Translations under genes and position numbers: made by a program
The notes under the pieces: generated by a model
Database searches by the model: none
Seen by the model: only the letters and a program-made list of their open reading frames with translations
Told to the model about the DNA's origin: nothing
Part shown: piece by piece, positions 51,099 to 64,000 of the stretch
Layout: every line of letters starts with the position of its first letter
Position numbering within the stretch: the first letter of the stretch is position 1
DNA from: Patescibacteria group bacterium
GTDB lineage: Bacteria > Patescibacteriota > Patescibacteriia > JAHIZJ01
Length of the DNA: 64,000 nucleotides
Assembly (NCBI GenBank): GCA_028714495.1
Contig: JAQTMH010000002.1
Location: forward strand, 163,714-227,713
Reading direction: 5' to 3'

Positions 51099-51428
51099 TT
51101 ATTTCTTCTTTTTTAAATGTAAGGGCAGGGCTTGCTGGCGGCCGAGAAGACTCCGAGCCGTCCGCCGGCCGAACGGTGTCAATTTCACCTCGCCAATAAA
51201 CCATTTTTGAGAGGTCCGCCGGCCAAAGCCGATAAGCAATTCCTTGTCGATCAATCGTTCCAGGCTTTTGGTAATAATATTCTGGATATCATCGATTTTG
51301 GGGTGCTTGGCCTGGCCATTGTAAAATTTAATGATGCCTGAACGAGGGTAGTTTTTCGAACGGCTGGCTGCTACTTCGCGCAAAATAAATTTTTGAAGCG
51401 GAGAGAGCTTCATTTTAGCCTTTATCAA
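51099..51428 (-). CDS. Small basic hypothetical protein (possible winged-helix DNA binding)
   Basis: 109-aa Lys/Arg-rich ORF that overlaps the aspS start by 14 nt. Confidence 0.35.
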   Translation of the reverse strand: MIKAKMKLSPLQKFILREVAASRSKNYPRSGIIKFYNGQAKHPKIDDIQNIITKSLERLIDKELLIGFGRRTSQKWFIGEVKLTPFGRRTARSLLGRQQALPLHLKKKK

Positions 51429-52827
51429 CTCTTAAGCCTAAATCACGGAGCTGGGCTGGAGTAACCTTGGTCGGTGAATCCATCATCGGATCCCGGCCTT
51501 CGCTCGTCAGAGGAAAAGCAATCACCTCTTTCAGGTTTTTTTCTCCCAGGATCGCCATTAGCAGGCGCTCAATGCCCGGGGCAATGCCGCCGTGGGGCGG
51601 GACACCGTATTGAAAAGCCGTGAGCAAATGCTTAAATTGTTTTTTCTGGTCCTTAGTAAAACCGATGATGTCAAAAACTTTCTCCTGGATCTCCGCCTGG
51701 TGGATCCGAATGCTCCCGCCGCCGACCTCAAATCCGTTTAACACCAAGTCGTGCTGGTAGGAATGTACTTTTTCAGGAGCGGTGTCCAAAAGCGGCAGAT
51801 CCTCTTCCTTGGGCGCCGTAAACATGTGATGTGAAGGCGCTAATTTATCCCCGGCCCCGTGGAAAAAATCTTCCTTTGTCTGTTTTGTGAAAAGCGGAAA
51901 ATCAACTATCCAGGCAAAGGCCAATTCGTCCTTGTTGTCCCGGTTCTTCCTCAAATCCGGCTTGTCAGTGCCGTACTTCTCCATTGCCTCGGCGTGCTTT
52001 AACCTTGGCCAAGGTTCCTGGCTGAGGCGCTTGTTTGGAAAAAGCTTTTTGACAAGAGCGGTGACCATTTCCTCGACCAGCTTCAAAATATCGTCTTGGC
52101 TGATAAAAGCCATCTCAATATCCAGTTGGTAAAATTCGCCAGGACTGCGGTCAGCTCGGGCATCTTCATCGCGAAAGCATGGAGCAATCTGAAAATACTT
52201 TTCAAAACCCGCCACCATCAAGAGCTGCTTGTACTGCTGGGGCGATTGGGGCAAGGCGAAAAACTTACCCTTTTGAAGCCGCGAGGGGACCAGATAATCC
52301 CGGGCTCCCTCGGGAGTTGATTTAGAAAGTATCGGCGTTTGAATTTCGGCAAATCCCCGGCCGTGCAGCCAATCGCGTAAAAACCACATCATTTCAGATC
52401 GTAAAATCAAATTTTGTCTCATTCTCTCGTGGCGCAGATCAAGGTAGCGGTATTTCAAACGCAGCTCCTCCGAAGCTTGCCGCGTCTCATTGTCAATCTC
52501 AAATGGCGGTGTAAATGATGGACATAATATCACTAGGTTTCTTGCAATAAGGTCGATTCGGCCAGTCGTCTGCTTTGGATTAATGTTTTTCCCAATACGC
52601 TCAACGACTTGTCCAGTTACCTGAATAACCGATTCCGGCTTAACACTCTTGGCTTTTGCAAATGGTTCCGCTTGATCATTTAAAAAAACAATCTGTAAAT
52701 GCCCGCTGATATCGCGCAAATTAATAAAAATAATCTGGCTGAGAATCCGTATTTTCTCAACCCAGCCAGCCACGGTAACGATCCGGCTTACAGATTTAAT
52801 TGTTTGAGAGGAAAGTATTCTCTGCAT
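51415..52827 (-). CDS. aspS: Aspartyl-tRNA synthetase, bacterial-type motifs but lacking the GAD insertion domain
   Basis: Class IIb. OB-fold N-domain, FQIAPCFRDEDARADRSPGEFYQLDIEMAF (bacterial AspRS motif 2), and GGGSIRIH...PPHGGIAPGIERLLM (motif 3). It is only 470 aa. Confidence 0.8.
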   Translation of the reverse strand: MQRILSSQTIKSVSRIVTVAGWVEKIRILSQIIFINLRDISGHLQIVFLNDQAEPFAKAKSVKPESVIQVTGQVVERIGKNINPKQTTGRIDLIARNLVILCPSFTPPFEIDNETRQASEELRLKYRYLDLRHERMRQNLILRSEMMWFLRDWLHGRGFAEIQTPILSKSTPEGARDYLVPSRLQKGKFFALPQSPQQYKQLLMVAGFEKYFQIAPCFRDEDARADRSPGEFYQLDIEMAFISQDDILKLVEEMVTALVKKLFPNKRLSQEPWPRLKHAEAMEKYGTDKPDLRKNRDNKDELAFAWIVDFPLFTKQTKEDFFHGAGDKLAPSHHMFTAPKEEDLPLLDTAPEKVHSYQHDLVLNGFEVGGGSIRIHQAEIQEKVFDIIGFTKDQKKQFKHLLTAFQYGVPPHGGIAPGIERLLMAILGEKNLKEVIAFPLTSEGRDPMMDSPTKVTPAQLRDLGLRVDKG

Positions 52828-52838
52828 ATAAATGAATC

Positions 52839-54131
52839 CTAGGGCTTTAAACGATTAATGAGGCGCGGGAATGGAATAGTCTCGCGGATATGCTCCAGCC
52901 CGCAAATCCAGCGCACCAGCCGCTCCAAACCCAGGCCGAAACCCGAGTGCGGGAATGAACCATAGCGCCGTAAATCAAGATACCATTCGAAATCCTTGCG
53001 CGGGAGTTTGAATTCCTTGAGCCGCTTTTCCAAAAGCTTCAGATCATCTATTCTCTCTGACCCGCCGATAATTTCACCAAAGCCTTCTGGCGCCAGCAAA
53101 TCATCGCCCAGCGAGAGTTCGGGATCAGCCGGGTCAGGCTTCATGTAAAAGGCCTTGATCTTTGTCGGGAAGTGGGTGATGAAAACCGGCTTGTCAAATT
53201 GTTTCGAGAGAACCGTTTCTTCGTCGCCCCCAAAGTCATCTCCCCTTTTCATTTTTAAACCCGCCTTGATTAATCTGGTAACAGCCTCGTCATAGGTAAG
53301 GCGCGGGAAAGGAACTGCTACTTTTTCCAAAATCTTGGTATCTCGCTCAAGCAGTTTTAATTCCTCCCGCCTTTCAATCAAGATGTTTTGAACAACCTGG
53401 CTGACAAGCTCTTCCTGGATTTTCAAATTCTCTTCGAAATCCACAAAAGCCGCTTCGGCATCAAGCATCCAAAACTCAGTTAGGTGGCGCCGGGTCTTTG
53501 ATTTTTCCGCGCGGAAGGTCGGACCAAAATCATACACCCGGCCCAAAGCCGCGGCCGTGGCCTCGATATAGAGCTGGCCGGTCTGGGCCAGATAAGCTTT
53601 TGTGTCAAAATAGTCGGTGCTAAAAAGGGTGGTCGTGCCTTCGCAGGAAGTCGGGGTGAGAACTGGCGAATCAGTCAGGACAAATCCCCGTTCGCGAAAA
53701 AACTTCCTAAGTTGCCAAACCACTTCATCCCGCACTTTTAAAATCGCGGCCTGACGCGCTGAGCGCAGCCAAAGATGTCTATTGTCCATCAAAAACTCAG
53801 GGCCGTGCTCTTTCTTGGCAATCGGATATTCCTCAGCCAGCTGAATAATCTTCAGATCCTTTACCTCAAGTTCAAAACCGTAGGCAGAACGCTTATCCTC
53901 GTGGACCGTGCCAAAAAGCTCGATTGAGCTTTCCATGGTCAGTTTCCCGCAAGCCTGCCAAGTCTTTGAATCAACCTCTTTTTTGCTGATTACAGCCTGA
54001 ATCCGGCCGCTGCCATCCCGAAATTGGAGGAAATAAATACTGCCCGAAGAACGGACATTAAAAACCCAGCCCTTTAGGCTGACCTCTTTTTCTGGATACT
54101 TTGATACCTCGGAAAGCTGAATTAATGGCAT
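52839..54131 (-). CDS. asnS: Asparaginyl-tRNA synthetase (class IIb)
   Basis: FRAEKSKTRRHLTEFWMLDAEAAF closely matches AsnRS motif 2. The C-terminus reads GSFPHSGFGLGLERLV. Confidence 0.7.
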   Translation of the reverse strand: MPLIQLSEVSKYPEKEVSLKGWVFNVRSSGSIYFLQFRDGSGRIQAVISKKEVDSKTWQACGKLTMESSIELFGTVHEDKRSAYGFELEVKDLKIIQLAEEYPIAKKEHGPEFLMDNRHLWLRSARQAAILKVRDEVVWQLRKFFRERGFVLTDSPVLTPTSCEGTTTLFSTDYFDTKAYLAQTGQLYIEATAAALGRVYDFGPTFRAEKSKTRRHLTEFWMLDAEAAFVDFEENLKIQEELVSQVVQNILIERREELKLLERDTKILEKVAVPFPRLTYDEAVTRLIKAGLKMKRGDDFGGDEETVLSKQFDKPVFITHFPTKIKAFYMKPDPADPELSLGDDLLAPEGFGEIIGGSERIDDLKLLEKRLKEFKLPRKDFEWYLDLRRYGSFPHSGFGLGLERLVRWICGLEHIRETIPFPRLINRLKP

Positions 54132-57890: not shown

Positions 57891-58466
57891 CTACGCTTCC
57901 GACGACGATTTTTTCGTCGGGTTTATCATAATCCAGTGTTTGTATTCTGAAGAATTTTGGTGAGGGAGATGTAATTTTCTTTTTTCGCCAAAATTTCTAT
58001 CTGAAATATAATAAACGTTTTTCGCGCTAAGACGAATATCCTTATCAAACCAATTTTCAAATGCCCTAAACCCTTTCGTCTGCGTCAGGCGCCAAAGCAG
58101 ACTCAATTGAGTGTCGGTAGAAGTATTATTATTTGTAAAACGGACAACCGCTATATGGTTCGAGGGTATTAAAATATCTTTGCCCGTATCGGCTGTCACA
58201 AAAATTGTTTTCCAGTTTTTGTGCGAAATAACATCGGATATTTGAGTATCAGTAGCTCCTGCGAATGCAACCAATTCAACTTTGGCAATCGTTAGTCCAA
58301 AGAAAACATCCGTTATGCCCTGAGCAGCGGCTAAACCAAAAACGTTTTCATCAAACACAACTACTGTTCGGCCGTCCTCTGGAATTGCAGAGTTAAAATC
58401 CGAATTGGTAGTTGAGGGATTAAAAGAAGATAAAAATAAATTGTCATTCTGAAATTCGTCAATCAT
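57891..58466 (-). CDS. Hypothetical protein, downstream partner of the proteasome-like gene
   Basis: 191-aa ORF whose ATG overlaps the stop of the upstream gene (ATGA). Predicted alpha/beta fold (VVVFDENVFGLAAAQGITDVFFGLTIAKVELVAFAGA). No family recognised. Confidence 0.45.
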   Translation of the reverse strand: MIDEFQNDNLFLSSFNPSTTNSDFNSAIPEDGRTVVVFDENVFGLAAAQGITDVFFGLTIAKVELVAFAGATDTQISDVISHKNWKTIFVTADTGKDILIPSNHIAVVRFTNNNTSTDTQLSLLWRLTQTKGFRAFENWFDKDIRLSAKNVYYISDRNFGEKRKLHLPHQNSSEYKHWIMINPTKKSSSEA

Positions 58467-59197
58467 GCGGTAAGCGTTTTATTTTTTATAAAACTCGCCT
58501 TGTCGGGAGTAATTACAAGTACATCAACGGGGCCACCGACATTTTTGGGGCGAGCTTGAAAACGAATTGTGTCAATCGTTGCCTTGATTGCAAATTCTGA
58601 AAAATCTATTGCGTCTTGCAGTGGCATGGCATCCCAAATGATAGGAGCGGGTTGGCGTAATACTTTTTGTGTACCAGTCTGATCGGCAACAACAACTGGA
58701 GTAATAAGTCCGGAAATTACATCAGCTTGGCCAGACCATGTTGCCCCATATGCAAGCGAGTTGTCTGGTTTTAGGTTTCTGCGAGAAACTTCGTTGCGAC
58801 CAATATGACAATAAAAAACATACGGAACGCTCACTTTGCCGTCTTTCTTATACCCGCAAACATGGAAACCACAATCTGTTTTTCCAAATTCTTTTGCAAA
58901 AAAATCGACGAGCTTGCGGGCGATTAATTCTACATCATCAGTATCTTTCAAAACTTCTTCGCTGAAACGCTTTATATGACTTGCCATTGGTACGCCGCCG
59001 AGCAAATCCTGTCCAAAATTCGAAATACCCACCTTCTGTTTTTCAAGAAGGAAGGTTTTTGTAACGGCATCAGAGTTTACTGTTTCCACATTAAACTCTT
59101 TGCCATCGGGACTTTTGCCGGAAATGGTAACAGACTGGCGACTATCAGACGCCATTGCGATACCTTCTGGAACATATGTTGCGACAACTAAACTCAT
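58463..59197 (-). CDS. 20S-proteasome-beta / HslV-like Ntn-hydrolase homolog with Ser at position 1
   Basis: Alignable to archaeal proteasome beta. The N-terminus M-S-LVVATYVPEGIAMASDSRQS matches T1..GxxxAxDxR (Asp17/Arg19 equivalents present). ...YGATWSGQADVISGL matches the YASTGSGS Ser129/Gly130 block. No propeptide. Confidence 0.5.
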   Translation of the reverse strand: MSLVVATYVPEGIAMASDSRQSVTISGKSPDGKEFNVETVNSDAVTKTFLLEKQKVGISNFGQDLLGGVPMASHIKRFSEEVLKDTDDVELIARKLVDFFAKEFGKTDCGFHVCGYKKDGKVSVPYVFYCHIGRNEVSRRNLKPDNSLAYGATWSGQADVISGLITPVVVADQTGTQKVLRQPAPIIWDAMPLQDAIDFSEFAIKATIDTIRFQARPKNVGGPVDVLVITPDKASFIKNKTLTA

Positions 59198-59203
59198 AAA
59201 GAT

Positions 59204-59232
59204 ATTATATTTTAATAATTAGATTTTGTCAA
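59204..59232 (-). promoter_or_regulatory. Perfect consensus sigma70 promoter (TTGACA, 17-nt spacer, TATAAT) reading the minus strand; predicts a leaderless transcript
   Basis: Minus-strand -35 at 59227-59232, -10 at 59204-59209. The -10 ends 6-7 nt before the ATG at 59197, and there is no SD. Confidence 0.45.
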
Positions 59233-59330
59233 GTTTTATGCTAGATTTAATTCCAGAATTTTTTCACCGGGTACTATCTCTCGCTTTTTTTTGATGGCTA
59301 TGCTATCCGAAGCTCCAAAGGAGTGAAGGC

Positions 59331-59351
59331 TGGTGCGCCGTGGAGGATTCG
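59331..59351. repeat. 21-bp direct repeat of the tRNA-Lys 3' end, an att-like footprint
   Basis: tggtgcgccgtggaggattcg is identical to 59489-59509, the 3' end of tRNA-Lys including CCA. The sequence diverges after the T-arm. Confidence 0.6.
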
Positions 59352-59488
59352 TGTCCTGGGCAGCGGCGACCTGCCACTGGCAGCTCGCCGATCGCTCGTC
59401 TGTCGCTTCGCTCGGTCTCGCTCCTGCCCTTCGAATCCCCTTCATGGTACAAGGCTGATTTCTGTATTTAAACTGAGCGTGGATTCTA

Positions 59489-59565
59489 TGGTGCGCCGTG
59501 GAGGATTCGAACCTCCGACCGTCTGCTTAAAAGGCAGCTGCTCTACCAGGCTGAGCTAACGGCGC
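59489..59565 (-). tRNA. tRNA-Lys (anticodon UUU)
   Basis: The reverse complement reads GCGCCGTTAGCTCAGCCTGGTAGAGCAGCTGCCTTTTAAGCAGACGGTCGGAGGTTCGAATCCTCCACGGCGCACCA. It forms a cloverleaf with anticodon loop CTTTTAA and an encoded CCA. Confidence 0.8.
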
Positions 59566-59635
59566 GAGTTTTTACTTAATGAAGATTAGCAGATATTTAT
59601 ATTTTTTGCAAGGGTCGAACTGAAGCATAAAAAAA

Positions 59636-59660
59636 GCCCGGATACTAGGTGGTATCCAGG
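59636..59660 (-). terminator. Rho-independent terminator (minus strand) after the 59673 gene
   Basis: On the minus strand: cctggatac-cacc-tagtatccgggc followed by ttttttt. The aaaaaagcccggata motif is shared with the 61560 terminator. Confidence 0.4.
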
Positions 59661-59672
59661 CGTGGTACTTGC

Positions 59673-60476
59673 TCAAGTCAATGAGCCGCTGAAAAACACA
59701 GGCTCCTCAGTCGGAGTGAATGTTGACCGACTGGTCAGCAACGGACCGCTAATTCGGAATGTTGGAAATCTGTCCGTCTGACCCCTGGTCGGATCTTGGT
59801 CGTCGTTGAGTTCATGGAGCACGCCCGAACAAACGATGAATTCCGGTCCGCCACAGAGCCGACTCCATTCTGGATGCGTGAGCAGGAGAATTGCCACTTC
59901 AAAGGGCGTGAGGACAAACCGGCTTTGCATGCGGTTTGTTTCACTGATCGCGCGAGTGAAATCACGGTCTGGCACGGTCAGACAAGTGACAGACACGACC
60001 ATGAAGTCAAATTCATCGAATGTAGCGATGTGCTGAATGTGTTCATTCGCGATCGAGAAGGTAGGTCCTAGGACAGATTGAAGATCGAAGCCCGAGGTGA
60101 TGGACGTCACGAATGGCTGGCGCGACATCAGCAGAATCAGGGCGTGATAAAGCGCCAATCGGTAATGGCTGCTTAGTCGGTTTGGATTTGGGATGACTGC
60201 CAGACTTCTCTTTGGCCCGCGTGTGAGCAATGCTTCGGCTTGCGGACGCACTGGCTCTGCGTTGAATCTCTGGAACAGTGGCCACTCGAGCAATAAATCT
60301 AGCTGCTCCTCCCAGGGCCGAAGCTCACAGGGCTTCTCCAGTCTGGTCGAGCCGATAATCTTCTGAAGTAGGCAGCTTACCTCATGCGGATCTCGCTGGC
60401 CATCGACTACCAGTTTGCTAACCGTTGCCCATTGCCGGAACAATCGGTCTCCGGCCCGGACCGCGACACTACTCAT
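59673..60476 (-). CDS. Hypothetical protein, GC-rich (about 55%), probably horizontally acquired
   Basis: 267-aa Arg-rich ORF. The codon usage is atypical for the window. It is flanked by tRNA-Lys and a tandem repeat region. No family recognised. Confidence 0.4.
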   Translation of the reverse strand: MSSVAVRAGDRLFRQWATVSKLVVDGQRDPHEVSCLLQKIIGSTRLEKPCELRPWEEQLDLLLEWPLFQRFNAEPVRPQAEALLTRGPKRSLAVIPNPNRLSSHYRLALYHALILLMSRQPFVTSITSGFDLQSVLGPTFSIANEHIQHIATFDEFDFMVVSVTCLTVPDRDFTRAISETNRMQSRFVLTPFEVAILLLTHPEWSRLCGGPEFIVCSGVLHELNDDQDPTRGQTDRFPTFRISGPLLTSRSTFTPTEEPVFFSGSLT

Positions 60477-60619
60477 GTCATTTCTCCTTTGAAAAGAGCC
60501 TTGGTCAACAGCTGACTGCTCATCAGCCGGCTCATCTCACTTTGAGACGAGCACAATTAAATTAAGCTAATAATGCTGATTTGTCAACCCCAGACTAGTT
60601 TGCCCTTCAATGTGTTCAG

Positions 60620-60925
60620 GGGTGAAGGGGCGTCTCCTTGGTTGCCTTATGAATCCCTGACCCAGGATTCCGATCCAGGGGAAAGGTCTCCTACTCTATG
60701 GAGATGCTTCGTTTCACTCAGCAATTCAGGACAAGAATCCCTGAACGTAGTGAAGGGTCTCCTACTCCAGGGAGATGCTTCGTTTCACTCAGCAATACAG
60801 AACATGAATCCCTGACCCCGAGTCATATCGAGGGGGAAGGGTCTCACAATGATAAAAGTCGTTCTCGGTTAGGAGATCCTTCGGCCAGGCCTCAGGAATA
60901 CAGACCAAGTATCCCTGACCCCGGA
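60620..60925. repeat. Degenerate tandem repeat: 4 units with a 56-83 bp period
   Basis: Each unit starts g(g)gaagggtctc and ends gaatccctgac(cc). Units 2 and 3 are about 90% identical and include the hairpin tctcc-tactcYRg-ggaga. There are no unique-spacer/short-repeat CRISPR features. Confidence 0.5.
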
Positions 60926-61007
60926 CTCCCTGCGCCTCTCAGACCTAAACCCTTCAAAGACCTTTTTTATATTTGACTATCTTTTTCATCTGGAGCAAAA
61001 TATAAGC

Positions 61008-61505
61008 ATGGAAGAAATCGCGAAAAAAGACGCCCTGGCCAAAGCCAAAGAATGGCGGGCCGCCGGTAAAATCTGGCATTTTCATCTGCTGACGCCTGAT
61101 TGCGTTTTCAATGAAAGCAATGATAGACACGCCGTAATCTTGGAAAATACCGAGGACGAACAAATCTTCGTGGTTTATACTGACAAGCGTTCCCTGACCA
61201 TGGGCAAAATCCTGCTAAAGCTCCTCCATGGCAGCAAGGTCCTGGATCGGCCAAAGCGAGCTGCCCCGCCGAAAAACCCGGAGCTCCAGAAATTGCTGAA
61301 CCGGGCCAAGGAAATGAATCGCCTGGGTATTCCCTGGCACCACCACAATCTTTTTCCCGATTGCCAATTTAACGACCACGTGGGGCAGTGGAATATCGTG
61401 ATGGAGGACAAGGATAAAGGCAACCTGCTCGAAGCCGCCTACAACACCGAACCGAAAGAAGACATCAAAGAAATCGAGCGCCTTTTCTACGCACAGAAGG
61501 AATAA
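61008..61505 (+). CDS. Small protein with an internal tandem duplication (two WHxH-L-x-PDC-xFN domains); function unknown
   Basis: KIWHFHLLTPDCVFNESNDRHAVILENTEDEQIFVV aligns to IPWHHHNLFPDCQFNDHVGQWNIVMEDKDKGNLLEA. The only plus-strand gene in the terminal island. Confidence 0.5.
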   Translation: MEEIAKKDALAKAKEWRAAGKIWHFHLLTPDCVFNESNDRHAVILENTEDEQIFVVYTDKRSLTMGKILLKLLHGSKVLDRPKRAAPPKNPELQKLLNRAKEMNRLGIPWHHHNLFPDCQFNDHVGQWNIVMEDKDKGNLLEAAYNTEPKEDIKEIERLFYAQKE

Positions 61506-61559
61506 ATATTTTATTAAGCAAAATCTTATTTTAGGGATTTTGTTTTTTGAAATAAAAAA

Positions 61560-61597
61560 GCCCGGATATTCATCTAGAATACCGGGCAAAGGAACGA
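61560..61597. terminator. Bidirectional intrinsic terminator between convergent genes
   Basis: gcccggatattcatctagaataccgggc, flanked by an A-run on one side and a T-run on the other. Confidence 0.45.
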
Positions 61598-61613
61598 ATG
61601 AAGTGCTTTGCTG

Positions 61614-63971
61614 TCAATTGCCTTCAGGCTGACTGCCCTGCCTGGAGACAATCTCCAGCCGTTTGTTCTCGTATCCCCTTCGCTTGGCTTTCACCTCCCA
61701 GGTGAATCCCGAGCTACTGCCTGAGGGATCGATGATATCGAAACCGGTCTTTCCGGGCTGGTAGTACCAGTTTCCATGGGGCCCAAGGAAAGACGCGTTG
61801 ACGATGAGCGGATATTCATCCGAGATCGTCACGAGTTCAAGGAACAGAGGGTCAAGCTCGACATGCGCAATTCCGTTCACTAACTGGCCTCTACCCAAGT
61901 CAGAAAGGTGGCCCTCTGTCGATGTAGAAACATAGCTCTCCCTCATTTCACCGCCATCTTCCTGAACCATAGAAATACCACCAGTTGCCTCAATTCTGCC
62001 GATGCAGTAAAGGCCCAGGGCACTACTGTTTGGCATCTTGATGTAGACGCCTGTGCCGTTCACGGAGTTATTCTCCGCCAGAATAGTCCTCGCAGAACCA
62101 GTCGTGTGTTTTGAGATTGCCTTCACGGCAGCCGCGTCGGCATTGCTGGATTCAATGTCTCCTTCAAGTCCATAGACGATTCCTGATCCATGGACAGCTT
62201 CGCCAAACACGCCAGCCGGCACACTGGAATTTGAGCCTGATTGCTTGTAACCATGCGTTCGCCCAAGAACTCCGAAAGTAGCGCCCCCAACAGTAGCCCC
62301 GGTATCAAGTGCCATTCCGTAAACTCCAACAGCCGCCGCGCCTCCTGGATTGGGTTTTCCTTTTGCACGCGTTATCCCTTTCACACCATATGTCGCATTC
62401 TCGCCCTCGTACTTGTTATCCGCTTCGATAGCGGATTGATCCTGGCTTCCCACTGAAGCAGTGCCGGCTCTCACGAGGATACCATGACCTTGACCTTCGT
62501 TAACCACCCGTAGAACAGGGACACCCAATGACGTGTTGTCTCTGACATGAAGTTTGTTTTCCGGATCAGCAGTCCCCATTCCAACTCGTCCGTCTGTCAT
62601 CGCGGTTAGAATCCGCGTGCCGCCGGAAGCACCCTCAGTATCGATGAAAAACTGGTCCACGGCGCCCCGCTGGTCGACCAACATCCTCCAGAGATTCTTG
62701 TTTGGGTTCAGCCGCACCTCGGTACCGTCGTAGTACCCGTTGAAGTTAATTGCCTGGAACCCGCTGTTTTCACCGGGGAGCGGTTGAATGATGATGTTGG
62801 AATTCGCAGTACCATCCGTAACGCGCAATCCCCGATGAGTCAACTGTTGGCATTGTACCGTGAAGCGGCTTTGAGGCGTCGAAGTGCCGACTCCGACATT
62901 GCCAGAGTTCGTACTGTAAATGTCATTGCCAGAGCCAGCCCAGTAGGATGTCCCCGCGGCCGTAGTCTGCACGGTGCCGTCAGGGAACTTGAAACCTCCG
63001 GAGGCCGAGTGGATTCGACCTACCACCTGCAGTTTCTCCGTTGGATCAGTAGTGCCAACACCGAGATTCCCGCCCACGAAACCATCCTGATATGATCCAA
63101 ATCCATCGGCATCAGCCCAGAAATAGGTGAGGGTGGCTCCATTGTTCTGAACGCCGAAGTATCCATTCGCACCAGGGATACGAGCAGCCAGATTCGTGTT
63201 GTCGCTATACCACCCGGACAATACATTTCCCATTCCTTGAATGCCATTAATGCCGAAGATCTCTCCGCCCTGAACACGCACATCCCCATTGACATCAAGG
63301 GCATGGGCTGGGTTGGCCGTCCCAATCCCGACTTTGCCATCCTTACGAACAAGAAAACGTGAGTTGGTTTCATGGGACAGATGGGCCAGATATCCTTCAG
63401 TTGAGCCCGAACTTACGATGAACAAACCCTCACCATTCTTGTAGGCAAGTCGCACATCTGACGAGTTGTCTCCCAGACTGTTCGTAAAGCGCGCTGCCCA
63501 GTCATCACTATGGCCGTCAACATGAAGACGAGTGATAGGTAAAGTTGTCCCAATCCCCACATTACCATTGCCCAAAACGCAAAATTCGGTACCCACCGCG
63601 TTGCTCACCTGGAACAACCGTTCGGTCAATGGCACATTCCCTAAGCCGTTAACCAGCATCAGTTCATGCGAGCCGGTTAGATAGAACGGCCACATGGCTG
63701 AACCGCCATCGAAGTGAAACTTGTATCCAGGGTTGCTCGTACCGAATCCGATATAGCCCGGGTTCGTGTTGTAGATGTTGCCGTTCGACTCGGCCCAGTG
63801 GCTGTCACCACCTCCGCCCGTTCCGGAGGAATCAGCATAGGCCGCGTGGGTCGCGTAATCAGCAGTTTCCGCGTGACTAGCTGCCCGGGCTGAATCAGCC
63901 AGGGTAGCCTCTTGGGCGGTCTGCGAAGATACTGCCTGATTGGCCATCTGTGTCAGAAACGCGTATGGCAC
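61614..63971 (-). CDS. Large Gly-rich repeat protein resembling a tail fiber or beta-helical adhesin (5 or more 'GxGTxxP' repeats), GC-rich
   Basis: Repeats NVGIGTTLPITRLHV, KVGIGTANPAHALDV, NLGVGTTDPTEKLQV, NVGVGTSTPQSRFTV and RVGMGTADPENKLHV resemble tail-fiber-domain proteins. About 55% GC. Has its own terminator. Confidence 0.5.
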   Translation of the reverse strand: MPYAFLTQMANQAVSSQTAQEATLADSARAASHAETADYATHAAYADSSGTGGGGDSHWAESNGNIYNTNPGYIGFGTSNPGYKFHFDGGSAMWPFYLTGSHELMLVNGLGNVPLTERLFQVSNAVGTEFCVLGNGNVGIGTTLPITRLHVDGHSDDWAARFTNSLGDNSSDVRLAYKNGEGLFIVSSGSTEGYLAHLSHETNSRFLVRKDGKVGIGTANPAHALDVNGDVRVQGGEIFGINGIQGMGNVLSGWYSDNTNLAARIPGANGYFGVQNNGATLTYFWADADGFGSYQDGFVGGNLGVGTTDPTEKLQVVGRIHSASGGFKFPDGTVQTTAAGTSYWAGSGNDIYSTNSGNVGVGTSTPQSRFTVQCQQLTHRGLRVTDGTANSNIIIQPLPGENSGFQAINFNGYYDGTEVRLNPNKNLWRMLVDQRGAVDQFFIDTEGASGGTRILTAMTDGRVGMGTADPENKLHVRDNTSLGVPVLRVVNEGQGHGILVRAGTASVGSQDQSAIEADNKYEGENATYGVKGITRAKGKPNPGGAAAVGVYGMALDTGATVGGATFGVLGRTHGYKQSGSNSSVPAGVFGEAVHGSGIVYGLEGDIESSNADAAAVKAISKHTTGSARTILAENNSVNGTGVYIKMPNSSALGLYCIGRIEATGGISMVQEDGGEMRESYVSTSTEGHLSDLGRGQLVNGIAHVELDPLFLELVTISDEYPLIVNASFLGPHGNWYYQPGKTGFDIIDPSGSSSGFTWEVKAKRRGYENKRLEIVSRQGSQPEGN

Positions 63972-64000
63972 CGAGGCAAGCTCTGTGCGGGGAGAAAGCG

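Follow-up and report, generated by a model that had tools for sequence, protein, structure and literature searches.

Does a second copy of the 3' end of a tRNA-Lys gene, lying a short distance downstream of the gene itself, mark a site at which a mobile element integrated, and if so, what is left of that element? The question was raised by an initial annotation of 64 kb of DNA from a Patescibacteria group bacterium (the whole of this stretch is called the window below), according to which the last 21 bp of tRNA-Lys, CCA included, recur at 59331-59351, 158 bp from the copy within the gene and with 137 bp (59352-59488) between the two. Both the exact recurrence and the start-to-start spacing were confirmed. 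ARAGORN called the gene, on the minus strand at 59489-59565, as tRNA-Lys(ttt), and it scored 69.6 bits against the Rfam tRNA family, for which the gathering score is 29. The plus-strand 21-mer TGGTGCGCCGTGGAGGATTCG is the reverse complement of the tRNA-Lys 3' end CGAATCCTCCACGGCGCACCA and matches exactly at two sites, 59331-59351 and 59489-59509 (Table 1). Comparison of the sequence with the Rfam alignment placed the start of the identity block at CGAAT within the T-loop TTCGAAT. Both copies have the orientation of the tRNA gene and include CCA; the distal copy, which lies on the downstream (3') side of the gene, also has the discriminator base. On either side of the 21-mer, resemblance to the tRNA breaks off abruptly.

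The repeat is real. No third copy was found in the 64 kb when up to three mismatches were allowed, and none arose by chance in 100 shuffles; a 16-mer search, again with up to three mismatches, returned the same two sites and no others. A search for further copies had been proposed as a check on the annotation. Extended to five mismatches and to 6.5 kb past the window end, on contig L067, it found none, and a tandem array of the repeat in this DNA was rejected. A separately assembled Logan contig, L001 (SRR22315508), is base-for-base identical from the 3' part of the tRNA through the 137 bp and the repeat into the next gene, showing that the arrangement is not an artefact of one assembly. At gathering threshold, Rfam identified three tRNAs in the whole window and nothing else, and neither ARAGORN nor Rfam revealed a tmRNA, a two-piece tmRNA or any other known RNA across the element.

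Table 1. Features in and around the interval between the two copies of the tRNA-Lys 3' end, numbered by position in the window.
Feature	Position	Strand	Basis
191-aa partner gene, 4-nt overlap with the 244-aa gene	57891..58466	-	ORF list
Conserved 244-aa gene, anchor on the 3' side of the putative scar	58463..59197	-	765 homologues
Promoter of the 244-aa gene, TTGACA-17-TATAAT, 12/12 consensus, sigma-70-type	59204..59232	-	Promoter scan
69-aa ORF, GenBank hypothetical protein PHI73_02730	59236..59445	-	Singleton; no Pfam match
Distal 21-nt repeat copy, putative displaced tRNA-Lys 3' end fragment, attR-like	59331..59351	-	Exact match
GC-rich half of interval, 89 nt, 68.5% GC, can form a long hairpin	59352..59440	-	Composition
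Inverted 23-mer resembling tRNA T-loop and acceptor strand, TTCGAATCCCCTTCATGGTACAA	59430..59452	+	15/23 matches to tRNA-Lys 3' end
AT-rich half of interval, 48 nt, 37.5% GC, adjoins intact tRNA	59441..59488	-	Composition; no homologue found
Intact tRNA-Lys(UUU) gene, CCA encoded	59489..59565	-	ARAGORN; Rfam RF00005, 69.6 bits
Proximal 21-nt repeat copy, T-loop position ~56 to CCA, within intact tRNA, attL-like	59489..59509	-	Exact match
Intrinsic terminator of the 267-aa gene, upstream of the tRNA-Lys promoter region	59636..59661	-	Terminator scan
267-aa near-orphan gene, 54% GC, 5' side of tRNA	59673..60476	-	3 homologues

The 137 bp between the copies had been described as GC-rich. This holds for the part next to the distal copy, which lies well above the window mean of 47.1% GC, but not for the part next to the tRNA, which is AT-rich. 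Read along the tRNA strand, the order is tRNA-Lys, 48 nt of AT-rich DNA, 89 nt of GC-rich DNA, the 21-nt fragment, an AT-rich spacer of 98 nt and a promoter; CGAA flanks the GC-rich block on both sides. The interval contains no credible ORF or gene, and the two ORFs that overlap it had no Pfam match. Apart from the same-sample contig L001, no homologue of the 137 bp was found in the window or in 88 fetched loci, nor was there any similarity to it in INPHARED phages or PLSDB plasmids, and both the 21-mer and the core of the GC-rich hairpin were absent from IMG/VR. The possibility that the GC-rich block is a MITE-like repeat was rejected, as no second copy was present anywhere searched, and a resemblance between this block and the GC-rich upstream region of locus L076 was not significant (16 of 300 shuffles).

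The end of the promoter downstream of the fragment is separated by 6 nt from the start codon (ATG) of the 244-aa gene, the product of which is identical to the GenBank hypothetical protein PHI73_02725 of a Patescibacteria group bacterium MAG, encoded on a 258,610-bp contig. This protein had no sequence match in Pfam, PADLOC, NCBIfam or the PDB. An AlphaFold (AF2) model built with 30 homologues was poor (pLDDT 57), and in a Foldseek search of the PDB with this model all top matches were 20S proteasome beta subunits or Anbu (E ~1e-4, TM ~0.3), so that a proteasome-beta/Ntn-like fold is plausible, if tentative, for the modelled protein. Homologues of the 191-aa partner are present in L020 (79%) and L022 (39%), and a gene of similar size occupies the same position in L074-L088. 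Further along the 3' side lie genes for a P-type ATPase, a VanZ-like protein and two aminoacyl-tRNA synthetases, and no recombinase. On the 5' side of the tRNA are the 267-aa gene, which had no family matches and only three homologues among 5.8 billion clusters, a 71-nt tandem repeat, a 165-aa ORF and a large ORF without a family match. The window ends inside this last ORF, which measures 785 aa within the window and 899 aa in L067. The terminator scan found no terminator between tRNA-Lys and the 244-aa gene.

Contig L067 is 100% identical to the window from 59519 to 64000 and continues for a further 6.5 kb, encoding a 182-aa protein, RNase T, DnaB, YbaB, RecR, L21, a glycosyltransferase and RuvX. 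No recombinase was found in the interval, among the ORFs tested at 32-64 kb of the window, or in this 6.5-kb extension, in agreement with the earlier remark that no integrase is visible. The suggestion that the element might instead extend past the window end was not upheld: the repeats bound 137 bp, the tRNA has the window end on its 5' side, and L067 holds no recombinase in that direction. As the tRNA is on the minus strand, an element integrated at its 3' end must lie between the gene and the fragment, and nothing outside 59352-59488 is therefore bounded by the pair. A phage origin of the window as a whole was also rejected. Its 32-54 kb region carries housekeeping genes (DnaK/DnaJ/GrpE/HrcA, GAPDH, aldolase, TIM, ScpAB and two class-II aminoacyl-tRNA synthetases), a GenBank record names the source of the identical 244-aa protein as a Patescibacteria MAG, and BLAST matches to phages covered the tRNA only.

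The proteasome-like pair had been viewed as accessory. Its distribution points the other way. The 765 homologues of the 244-aa protein occur in Patescibacteria-like, Caldisericota and Dehalococcoidia assemblies, none is on a viral contig, and in L088 the 244/191-aa pair keeps the orientation relative to HrcA-GrpE that it has in the window. With this conservation, the kept order and the absence from viral contigs, the pair behaves as a resident anchor, not as cargo. Alignment of L082, L020 and L032 with the window showed that homology starts at about the promoter of the 244-aa gene, and the tRNA repeat thus coincides exactly with a break in synteny.

Where relatives have a 244-aa protein 78-94% identical to that in the window, the variable part is the DNA directly upstream of the promoter of this gene. 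A MutH-like endonuclease with an N6/N4 methyltransferase is found there in L020, L032, L083 and L084, and L082 carries a gene end similar to that of the relatives with this unit. Elsewhere the upstream position is taken by an MvaI/BcnI endonuclease (L021, L074 and L088), by a LexA-S24-methyltransferase fusion with either HNH (L077) or BglII (L080 and L081), by a Phd/PIN toxin-antitoxin (L023) or directly by tRNA-Asn (L027). L023 also carries Mrr just downstream of the 244-aa gene, between two tRNA-Asn genes. Restriction-modification (R-M) and toxin-antitoxin families dominate across 49 upstream ORFs from relatives of at least 60% identity, for which Pfam returned N6_N4_Mtase seven times, MutH four times, Peptidase_S24/LexA three times and MvaI_BcnI twice; families matched once include MamI, BglII, Eco57I, KAP NTPase, AAA_15/21, SocA and OrfB_IS605. 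The site upstream of the 244/191-aa pair is thus a variable hotspot, often beside tRNAs and orphan tRNA fragments. The description of the locus as an integration hotspot is borne out as far as variability and R-M and toxin-antitoxin cassettes in relatives are concerned.

Several of these tRNAs and fragments lie close to the gene pair. In L075 and L076, tRNA-Ser(tga) is 66 nt upstream and tRNA-Ser(gct) downstream of the 244-aa gene, and the promoter and 5' half of a tRNA-Ser are duplicated in tandem over ~120 nt. In L027 and L029, tRNA-Asn lies 88 nt upstream of the 244-aa gene. In the former, an exact 35-bp copy of the tRNA-Asn 3' end is found 2.04 kb downstream, and the segment so bounded contains the 244-aa gene, tRNA-Lys and Phd/PIN, with no integrase. 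A tRNA-Asn 3' fragment alone is at the same 88-nt position in L023, and in L020 the order is tRNA-Val, tRNA-Ala, an orphan T-arm/acceptor/CCA fragment and then the R-M unit. Such fragments are too short to score with a covariance model, and the partial tRNAs of relatives were identified by a T-arm pattern scan. Over 569 kb, the scan returned only three orphan fragments away from contig ends, all at these places in L027, L023 and L020.

Comparison with related genomes, which the initial annotation had proposed as a way of defining island boundaries, revealed the breakpoint and the variable upstream DNA; no relative with an empty or an occupied site was recovered. Among relatives carrying the 244-aa gene, there was no nucleotide homology on the tRNA side, and the adjacency to tRNA-Lys was not shared by those recovered. 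For the three relatives of the 267-aa gene, the contigs stop inside or before the tRNA, those that carry the 84% homologue ending inside it. In L070, which carries a 72% relative of the 267-aa gene, tRNA-Lys is inverted and converges on the 267-aa homologue, at ~214 nt from its stop. In the window, ~220 nt separate the inverted 23-mer from the stop codon of the 267-aa gene. Counting this 23-mer, three sites of the kind occur outside tRNAs in 128 kb (both strands together), a post hoc p of ~0.005, and, going by sequence resemblance, this 23-mer and the L070 arrangement might faintly record an old inversion at tRNA-Lys.

Which history best accounts for the repeat? The reading that we favour, at a confidence only a little better than even, is that the locus is a decayed integration scar, a relic att pair, at a recombination hotspot. 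An element of the tyrosine-integrase type would have recombined with tRNA-Lys(UUU) inside the 21-bp core, between the T-loop and the CCA end. Integration would have restored the tRNA at 59489-59565 and shifted its original 3' end to 59331-59351, and a later internal deletion would have removed nearly the whole element, its integrase included. The 137 bp would then be a remnant made up of two stubs, the AT-rich one adjoining the tRNA and the GC-rich one next to the displaced fragment, now inert DNA between tRNA-Lys and the promoter of the 244/191-aa pair. On this model the reconstructed attP would read ...CCCAGGACA-[21-mer]-TAGAATCCACGC..., an empty attB would carry the tRNA-Lys 3' end followed by GCCTTCACTCCTTTGG, that is, joined directly to GCCTTCACTCC, and an occupied site would show the tRNA-Lys 3' end followed by TAGAATCCACGCTCAG and then kilobases of DNA.

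The evidence for a scar is the exact 21/21 repeat, unique in the window, in the form of a terminal fragment downstream of the gene and in the same orientation, together with the recurrence of orphan tRNA 3' fragments beside the 244-aa gene family in L027, L023 and L020. The abrupt end of tRNA similarity is easier to reconcile with a crossover core than with a gene copy in decay, and the contrasting GC contents of the two halves are as expected if a deletion had joined two element ends. From the geometry we infer that the repeat is the work of an integrase and that DNA was subsequently deleted; that a second event is needed to explain just 137 bp counts against the model. The att-site signature proposed at the outset is accordingly supported in part, by the geometry, the T-loop start, the sharp edges and the breakpoint, but no integrase came to light nearby, searches of IMG/VR, INPHARED phages and PLSDB plasmids yielded neither a donor element nor attP, and neither an empty site nor a full-size element was present among the relatives recovered. 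It is for want of an integrase, a donor or an empty site that our confidence is not set higher. The 17-mer matches that the attP/donor search did return are phage tRNA-Val genes and not a donor.

A local duplication without any integrase, in which slippage or illegitimate recombination copied tRNA-Lys or its 3' end, would also yield a downstream fragment in the same orientation, with all but the last 21 nt of the copy since decayed or overwritten, possibly with GC-rich DNA inserted into the T-loop of that copy. We regard this as unlikely, though it is to be taken seriously. Within the interval, TCAGCCTTGTA matches the D-loop sequence TCAGCCTGGTA at 10 of 11 positions and GGGGATTCGAA matches the T-arm sequence GGAGGTTCGAA at 9 of 11, both in the orientation and order of the tRNA, which leaves some room for a decayed tandem copy; the CGAA on both sides of the GC-rich block, the absence of a nearby integrase and the tRNA-Ser tandem duplication in L075/L076, which indicates that local tRNA duplications occur in this group, point the same way. 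However, when the interval without the 21-mer was aligned with the tRNA, its score (20.5) was no better than that of shuffles (18.6 +/- 3.8; 303 of 1000 reached it), and a degenerate second tRNA-Lys, or pseudogene, was rejected on this ground. A perfect 21/21 block beside dissimilar sequence also misfits uniform decay, and a second copy, by which the GC-rich block could be recognized as an insertion element, is lacking. A further origin without a tyrosine integrase, which we hold to be improbable, is that the locus is the footprint of a cassette gained or lost, either through insertion with a long target duplication or as the remnant of an R-M cassette deletion. Insertion with a long target duplication has been proposed for some R-M units. 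An R-M unit abuts the promoter of the 244-aa gene in every close relative, and in L027 and L023 the modules that have tRNA fragments at their borders likewise lack an integrase. In addition, window positions 59239-59275 weakly resemble, in frame, the end of the upstream gene of L082 (...EKILELNLA* as against ...KKILETIA*). As 15 of 500 shuffles score at least as highly, this resemblance is marginal, and a relic of an upstream restriction-enzyme gene end was not accepted as a feature; the 137 bp itself bears no resemblance to R-M genes, and an exact repeat from T-loop to CCA resembles an integrase core and is not expected from random target duplication.

The interval might alternatively be kept for a function of its own. 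It could specify a structured RNA co-transcribed with tRNA-Lys, consisting of the GC-rich hairpin and a tRNA-like 3' tail, ACGGCGCACCA, and acting, for example, as a processing signal or as a decoy for CCA- or acceptor-binding enzymes. The lack of a terminator between the tRNA and the element would permit this, and in L020 a tRNA is also closely trailed by an orphan T-arm/acceptor/CCA fragment. The minus-strand hairpin has a predicted energy of -46 kcal/mol, and its base, GGGGAUUCG / CGAAUCCUC, is a 9-bp stem in which one strand is formed by the first 9 nt of the distal repeat; the palindromic T-loop core TTCGAA is what allows this pairing. Yet its z-score of -1.98 is borderline for a GC-rich sequence, with 10 of 200 shuffles folding as well, and the fold z-scores, -1.5 to -2.0 for the GC-rich half and -1.65 to -1.98 for the hairpin, are only marginally better than shuffles. 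With the 5' acceptor strand missing, no minihelix can form. Rfam 15 yielded no family over the interval even at E<=10, the tRNA itself being the sole match. No relative has a homologue, and there is thus no conservation or covariation; the element is wholly absent from the closest relatives. A functional RNA is for us very doubtful. That the interval is part of a genuine protein gene, PHI73_02730, is hardly credible at all. Its frame is open, starts with ATG and is annotated in GenBank as encoding a hypothetical protein, but the 69-aa product forms a singleton cluster among ~15 billion proteins, is of low complexity and rich in Arg and Ala, and has no Pfam match. The frame spans the GC-rich block, runs through the tRNA fragment and overlaps the -35 of the promoter of the next gene. 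The ORF is probably spurious.

Taken as a decayed scar, the locus can be compared with integration systems already described. Islander recognizes integrated islands by configuration, orientation, end fragment, crossover sublocation, integrase and length, and requires islands of 2-200 kb; the T-loop is one of the crossover sublocations that it recognizes, along with the anticodon loop and the T/acceptor junction (PMC4383910). Here, an intact tRNA-Lys and its cognate tDNA fragment at 59331-59351 are on the same replicon, the distal repeat is an end fragment that lies downstream and shares the orientation of the gene, and identity begins in the T-loop. On the other hand, no tyrosine integrase (PF00589) lies between the tDNA and the fragment, and the interval is 137 bp long with no credible gene, in place of 2-200 kb with cargo. 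The locus thus shares with tRNA-integrated islands and prophages the intact tRNA, the exact 3' fragment downstream in the same orientation and a break in composition between the copies, and differs from them in having 137 bp, no integrase, no cargo and no identifiable donor.

CIMEs are att-flanked elements without an integrase that can be mobilized in trans by the integrase of a related ICE. Like these, the proposed scar has two att-like repeats with no integrase between them, as does the 2.04-kb segment of L027 with its 35-bp tRNA-Asn repeats; unlike these, the 137 bp is too small for cargo or for a recombination-competent circle. Degenerate islands of Prochlorococcus keep scattered partial tRNAs without integrases (bioRxiv 10.1101/2020.12.28.424599). 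As in those tycheposon islands, a partial tRNA lies beside the island-seeding tRNA in a small, streamlined genome, no integrase is left at the locus, and relatives differ in the genes that they carry there, with defence-type cassettes abundant. At the locus described here, neither tycheposon-like hallmark genes nor a fragmented integrase were seen, and there is a single fragment, not an array; the lineage is Patescibacteria and the cassettes are of the R-M and toxin-antitoxin kinds. Across prokaryotes, tRNA gene fragments have been described as arising widely through the integration of mobile elements (PMC9897764). The distal copy resembles the mis-annotated fragments of that study in being a non-functional end fragment, produced by genome rearrangement and lying under a spurious annotation, here the 69-aa ORF, but at 21 nt it is too short for a tRNA call by ARAGORN or Rfam.

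The putative scar is a new instance of a well-known and ordinary kind of feature, its "island" being a 137-bp remnant. It flags PHI73_02730 as a GenBank ORF to be doubted, marks the point at which synteny breaks, and suggests that tRNA-targeted integration probably operated in a Patescibacteria genome. In a limited search of the literature, we found no paper focused on tRNA-targeted integration elements in Patescibacteria. A bolder reading, for us a long shot, is that the site upstream of the proteasome-like 244/19x-aa pair is a dedicated hotspot of cassette exchange in Patescibacteria and neighbouring lineages. Integrase-less defence modules (R-M, Phd/PIN and Mrr) would be swapped there at tRNA 3'-end cores by an activity supplied in trans, an economy similar to that of tycheposons or integrons and not yet described for ultra-small genomes; were this so, the 137-bp unit in the window would represent the "empty cassette" state. 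The recurrence of R-M and toxin-antitoxin cassettes, tRNAs and orphan fragments beside one gene pair is the sole lead from this locus that merits a broader survey, which could throw light on the turnover of defence genes in genomes apparently devoid of conventional mobile elements.

The 244-aa gene, a conserved and tentatively proteasome-like gene, is preceded by a promoter that matches the consensus throughout, and its ATG starts 6 nt past the end of that promoter. This spacing implies that the mRNA would be leaderless and would lack a Shine-Dalgarno sequence. Promoter-like sequences were found at the matching position in five loci of relatives (L020, L021, L032, L074 and L082). The coordinates of this promoter and of the other features are collected below.

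Features of the window and of loci in relatives (prefix L, own coordinates)
Feature	Position	Strand	Remarks
Class-II aminoacyl-tRNA synthetase paralogues (two), Asp/Lys/Asn type	51415-52827; 52839-54131	-; -	
Consensus promoter	59204-59232	-	12/12; belongs to the 244-aa gene
Inverted 23-mer, tRNA-Lys 3'-end-like	59430-59452	+	within the 137-bp interval between tRNA-Lys and its displaced 3' end copy
267-aa ORF	59673-60476	-	54% GC
71-nt tandem repeat	60681-60815		1.9 copies, 90% identical; looser copies to 60923 and 61199
Orphan tRNA 3' half	L020:4459-4511		GGCGG TTCAAAT CCGCC CAGGTCC A CCA
tRNA-Asn 3'-end direct repeat and bounded segment	L027:399-2558		35 bp, exact
Inverted tRNA-Lys	L070:1214-1254		in a 72% relative of the 267-aa gene
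Tandem duplication, promoter region and tRNA-Ser(tga) 5' half	L075:500-680; L076:160-408		~120 nt
LexA_DNA_bind/Peptidase_S24/N6_N4_Mtase protein	L077:488-1918; L080:6319-7914; L081:1701-3296		

The inverted tRNA-Lys of L070 lies at a distance from the 267-aa homologue similar to that separating the inverted 23-mer from the 267-aa gene in the window, and the two inverted sequences may be the trace of an inversion. A search of 5.8 billion protein clusters returned only three homologues of the 267-aa ORF, every one on a short environmental contig, and family and defence-system searches with this ORF gave no match. Between it and a 165-aa ORF lies the 71-nt tandem repeat, near which additional degenerate copies correspond to the 3' part of the repeat unit. 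Elsewhere in the window, the two adjacent synthetase genes are separated by 12 nt.

Several relatives carry tRNA-derived repeats or fragments. The repeats in L027 flank a 2.04-kb segment in which a homologue of the 244-aa gene is accompanied by tRNA-Lys(UUU) and by a toxin-antitoxin pair of the Phd/PIN type; no integrase is present in this segment. The duplicated unit of L075 and L076 reaches the anticodon loop of tRNA-Ser(tga), and an intact copy of this tRNA follows immediately downstream, 66 nt upstream of the 244-aa homologue; a second tRNA-Ser, tRNA-Ser(gct), comes after the gene pair. The orphan 3' half in L020 is immediately preceded by tRNA-Ala(cgc), whose 5' strand (GGGCCTG) pairs better with the acceptor strand of the fragment than with its own 3' strand. 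An R-M unit comes after the fragment, and the upstream sequence contains D-arm-like debris as well as a 40-nt unit repeated four times in tandem.

In L077, L080 and L081, the three domains listed are combined in single proteins of 477-531 aa, and HNH or BglII endonuclease genes adjoin the genes encoding them. Each of these proteins looks like the methyltransferase of an R-M unit fused to a LexA-like self-cleaving repressor.
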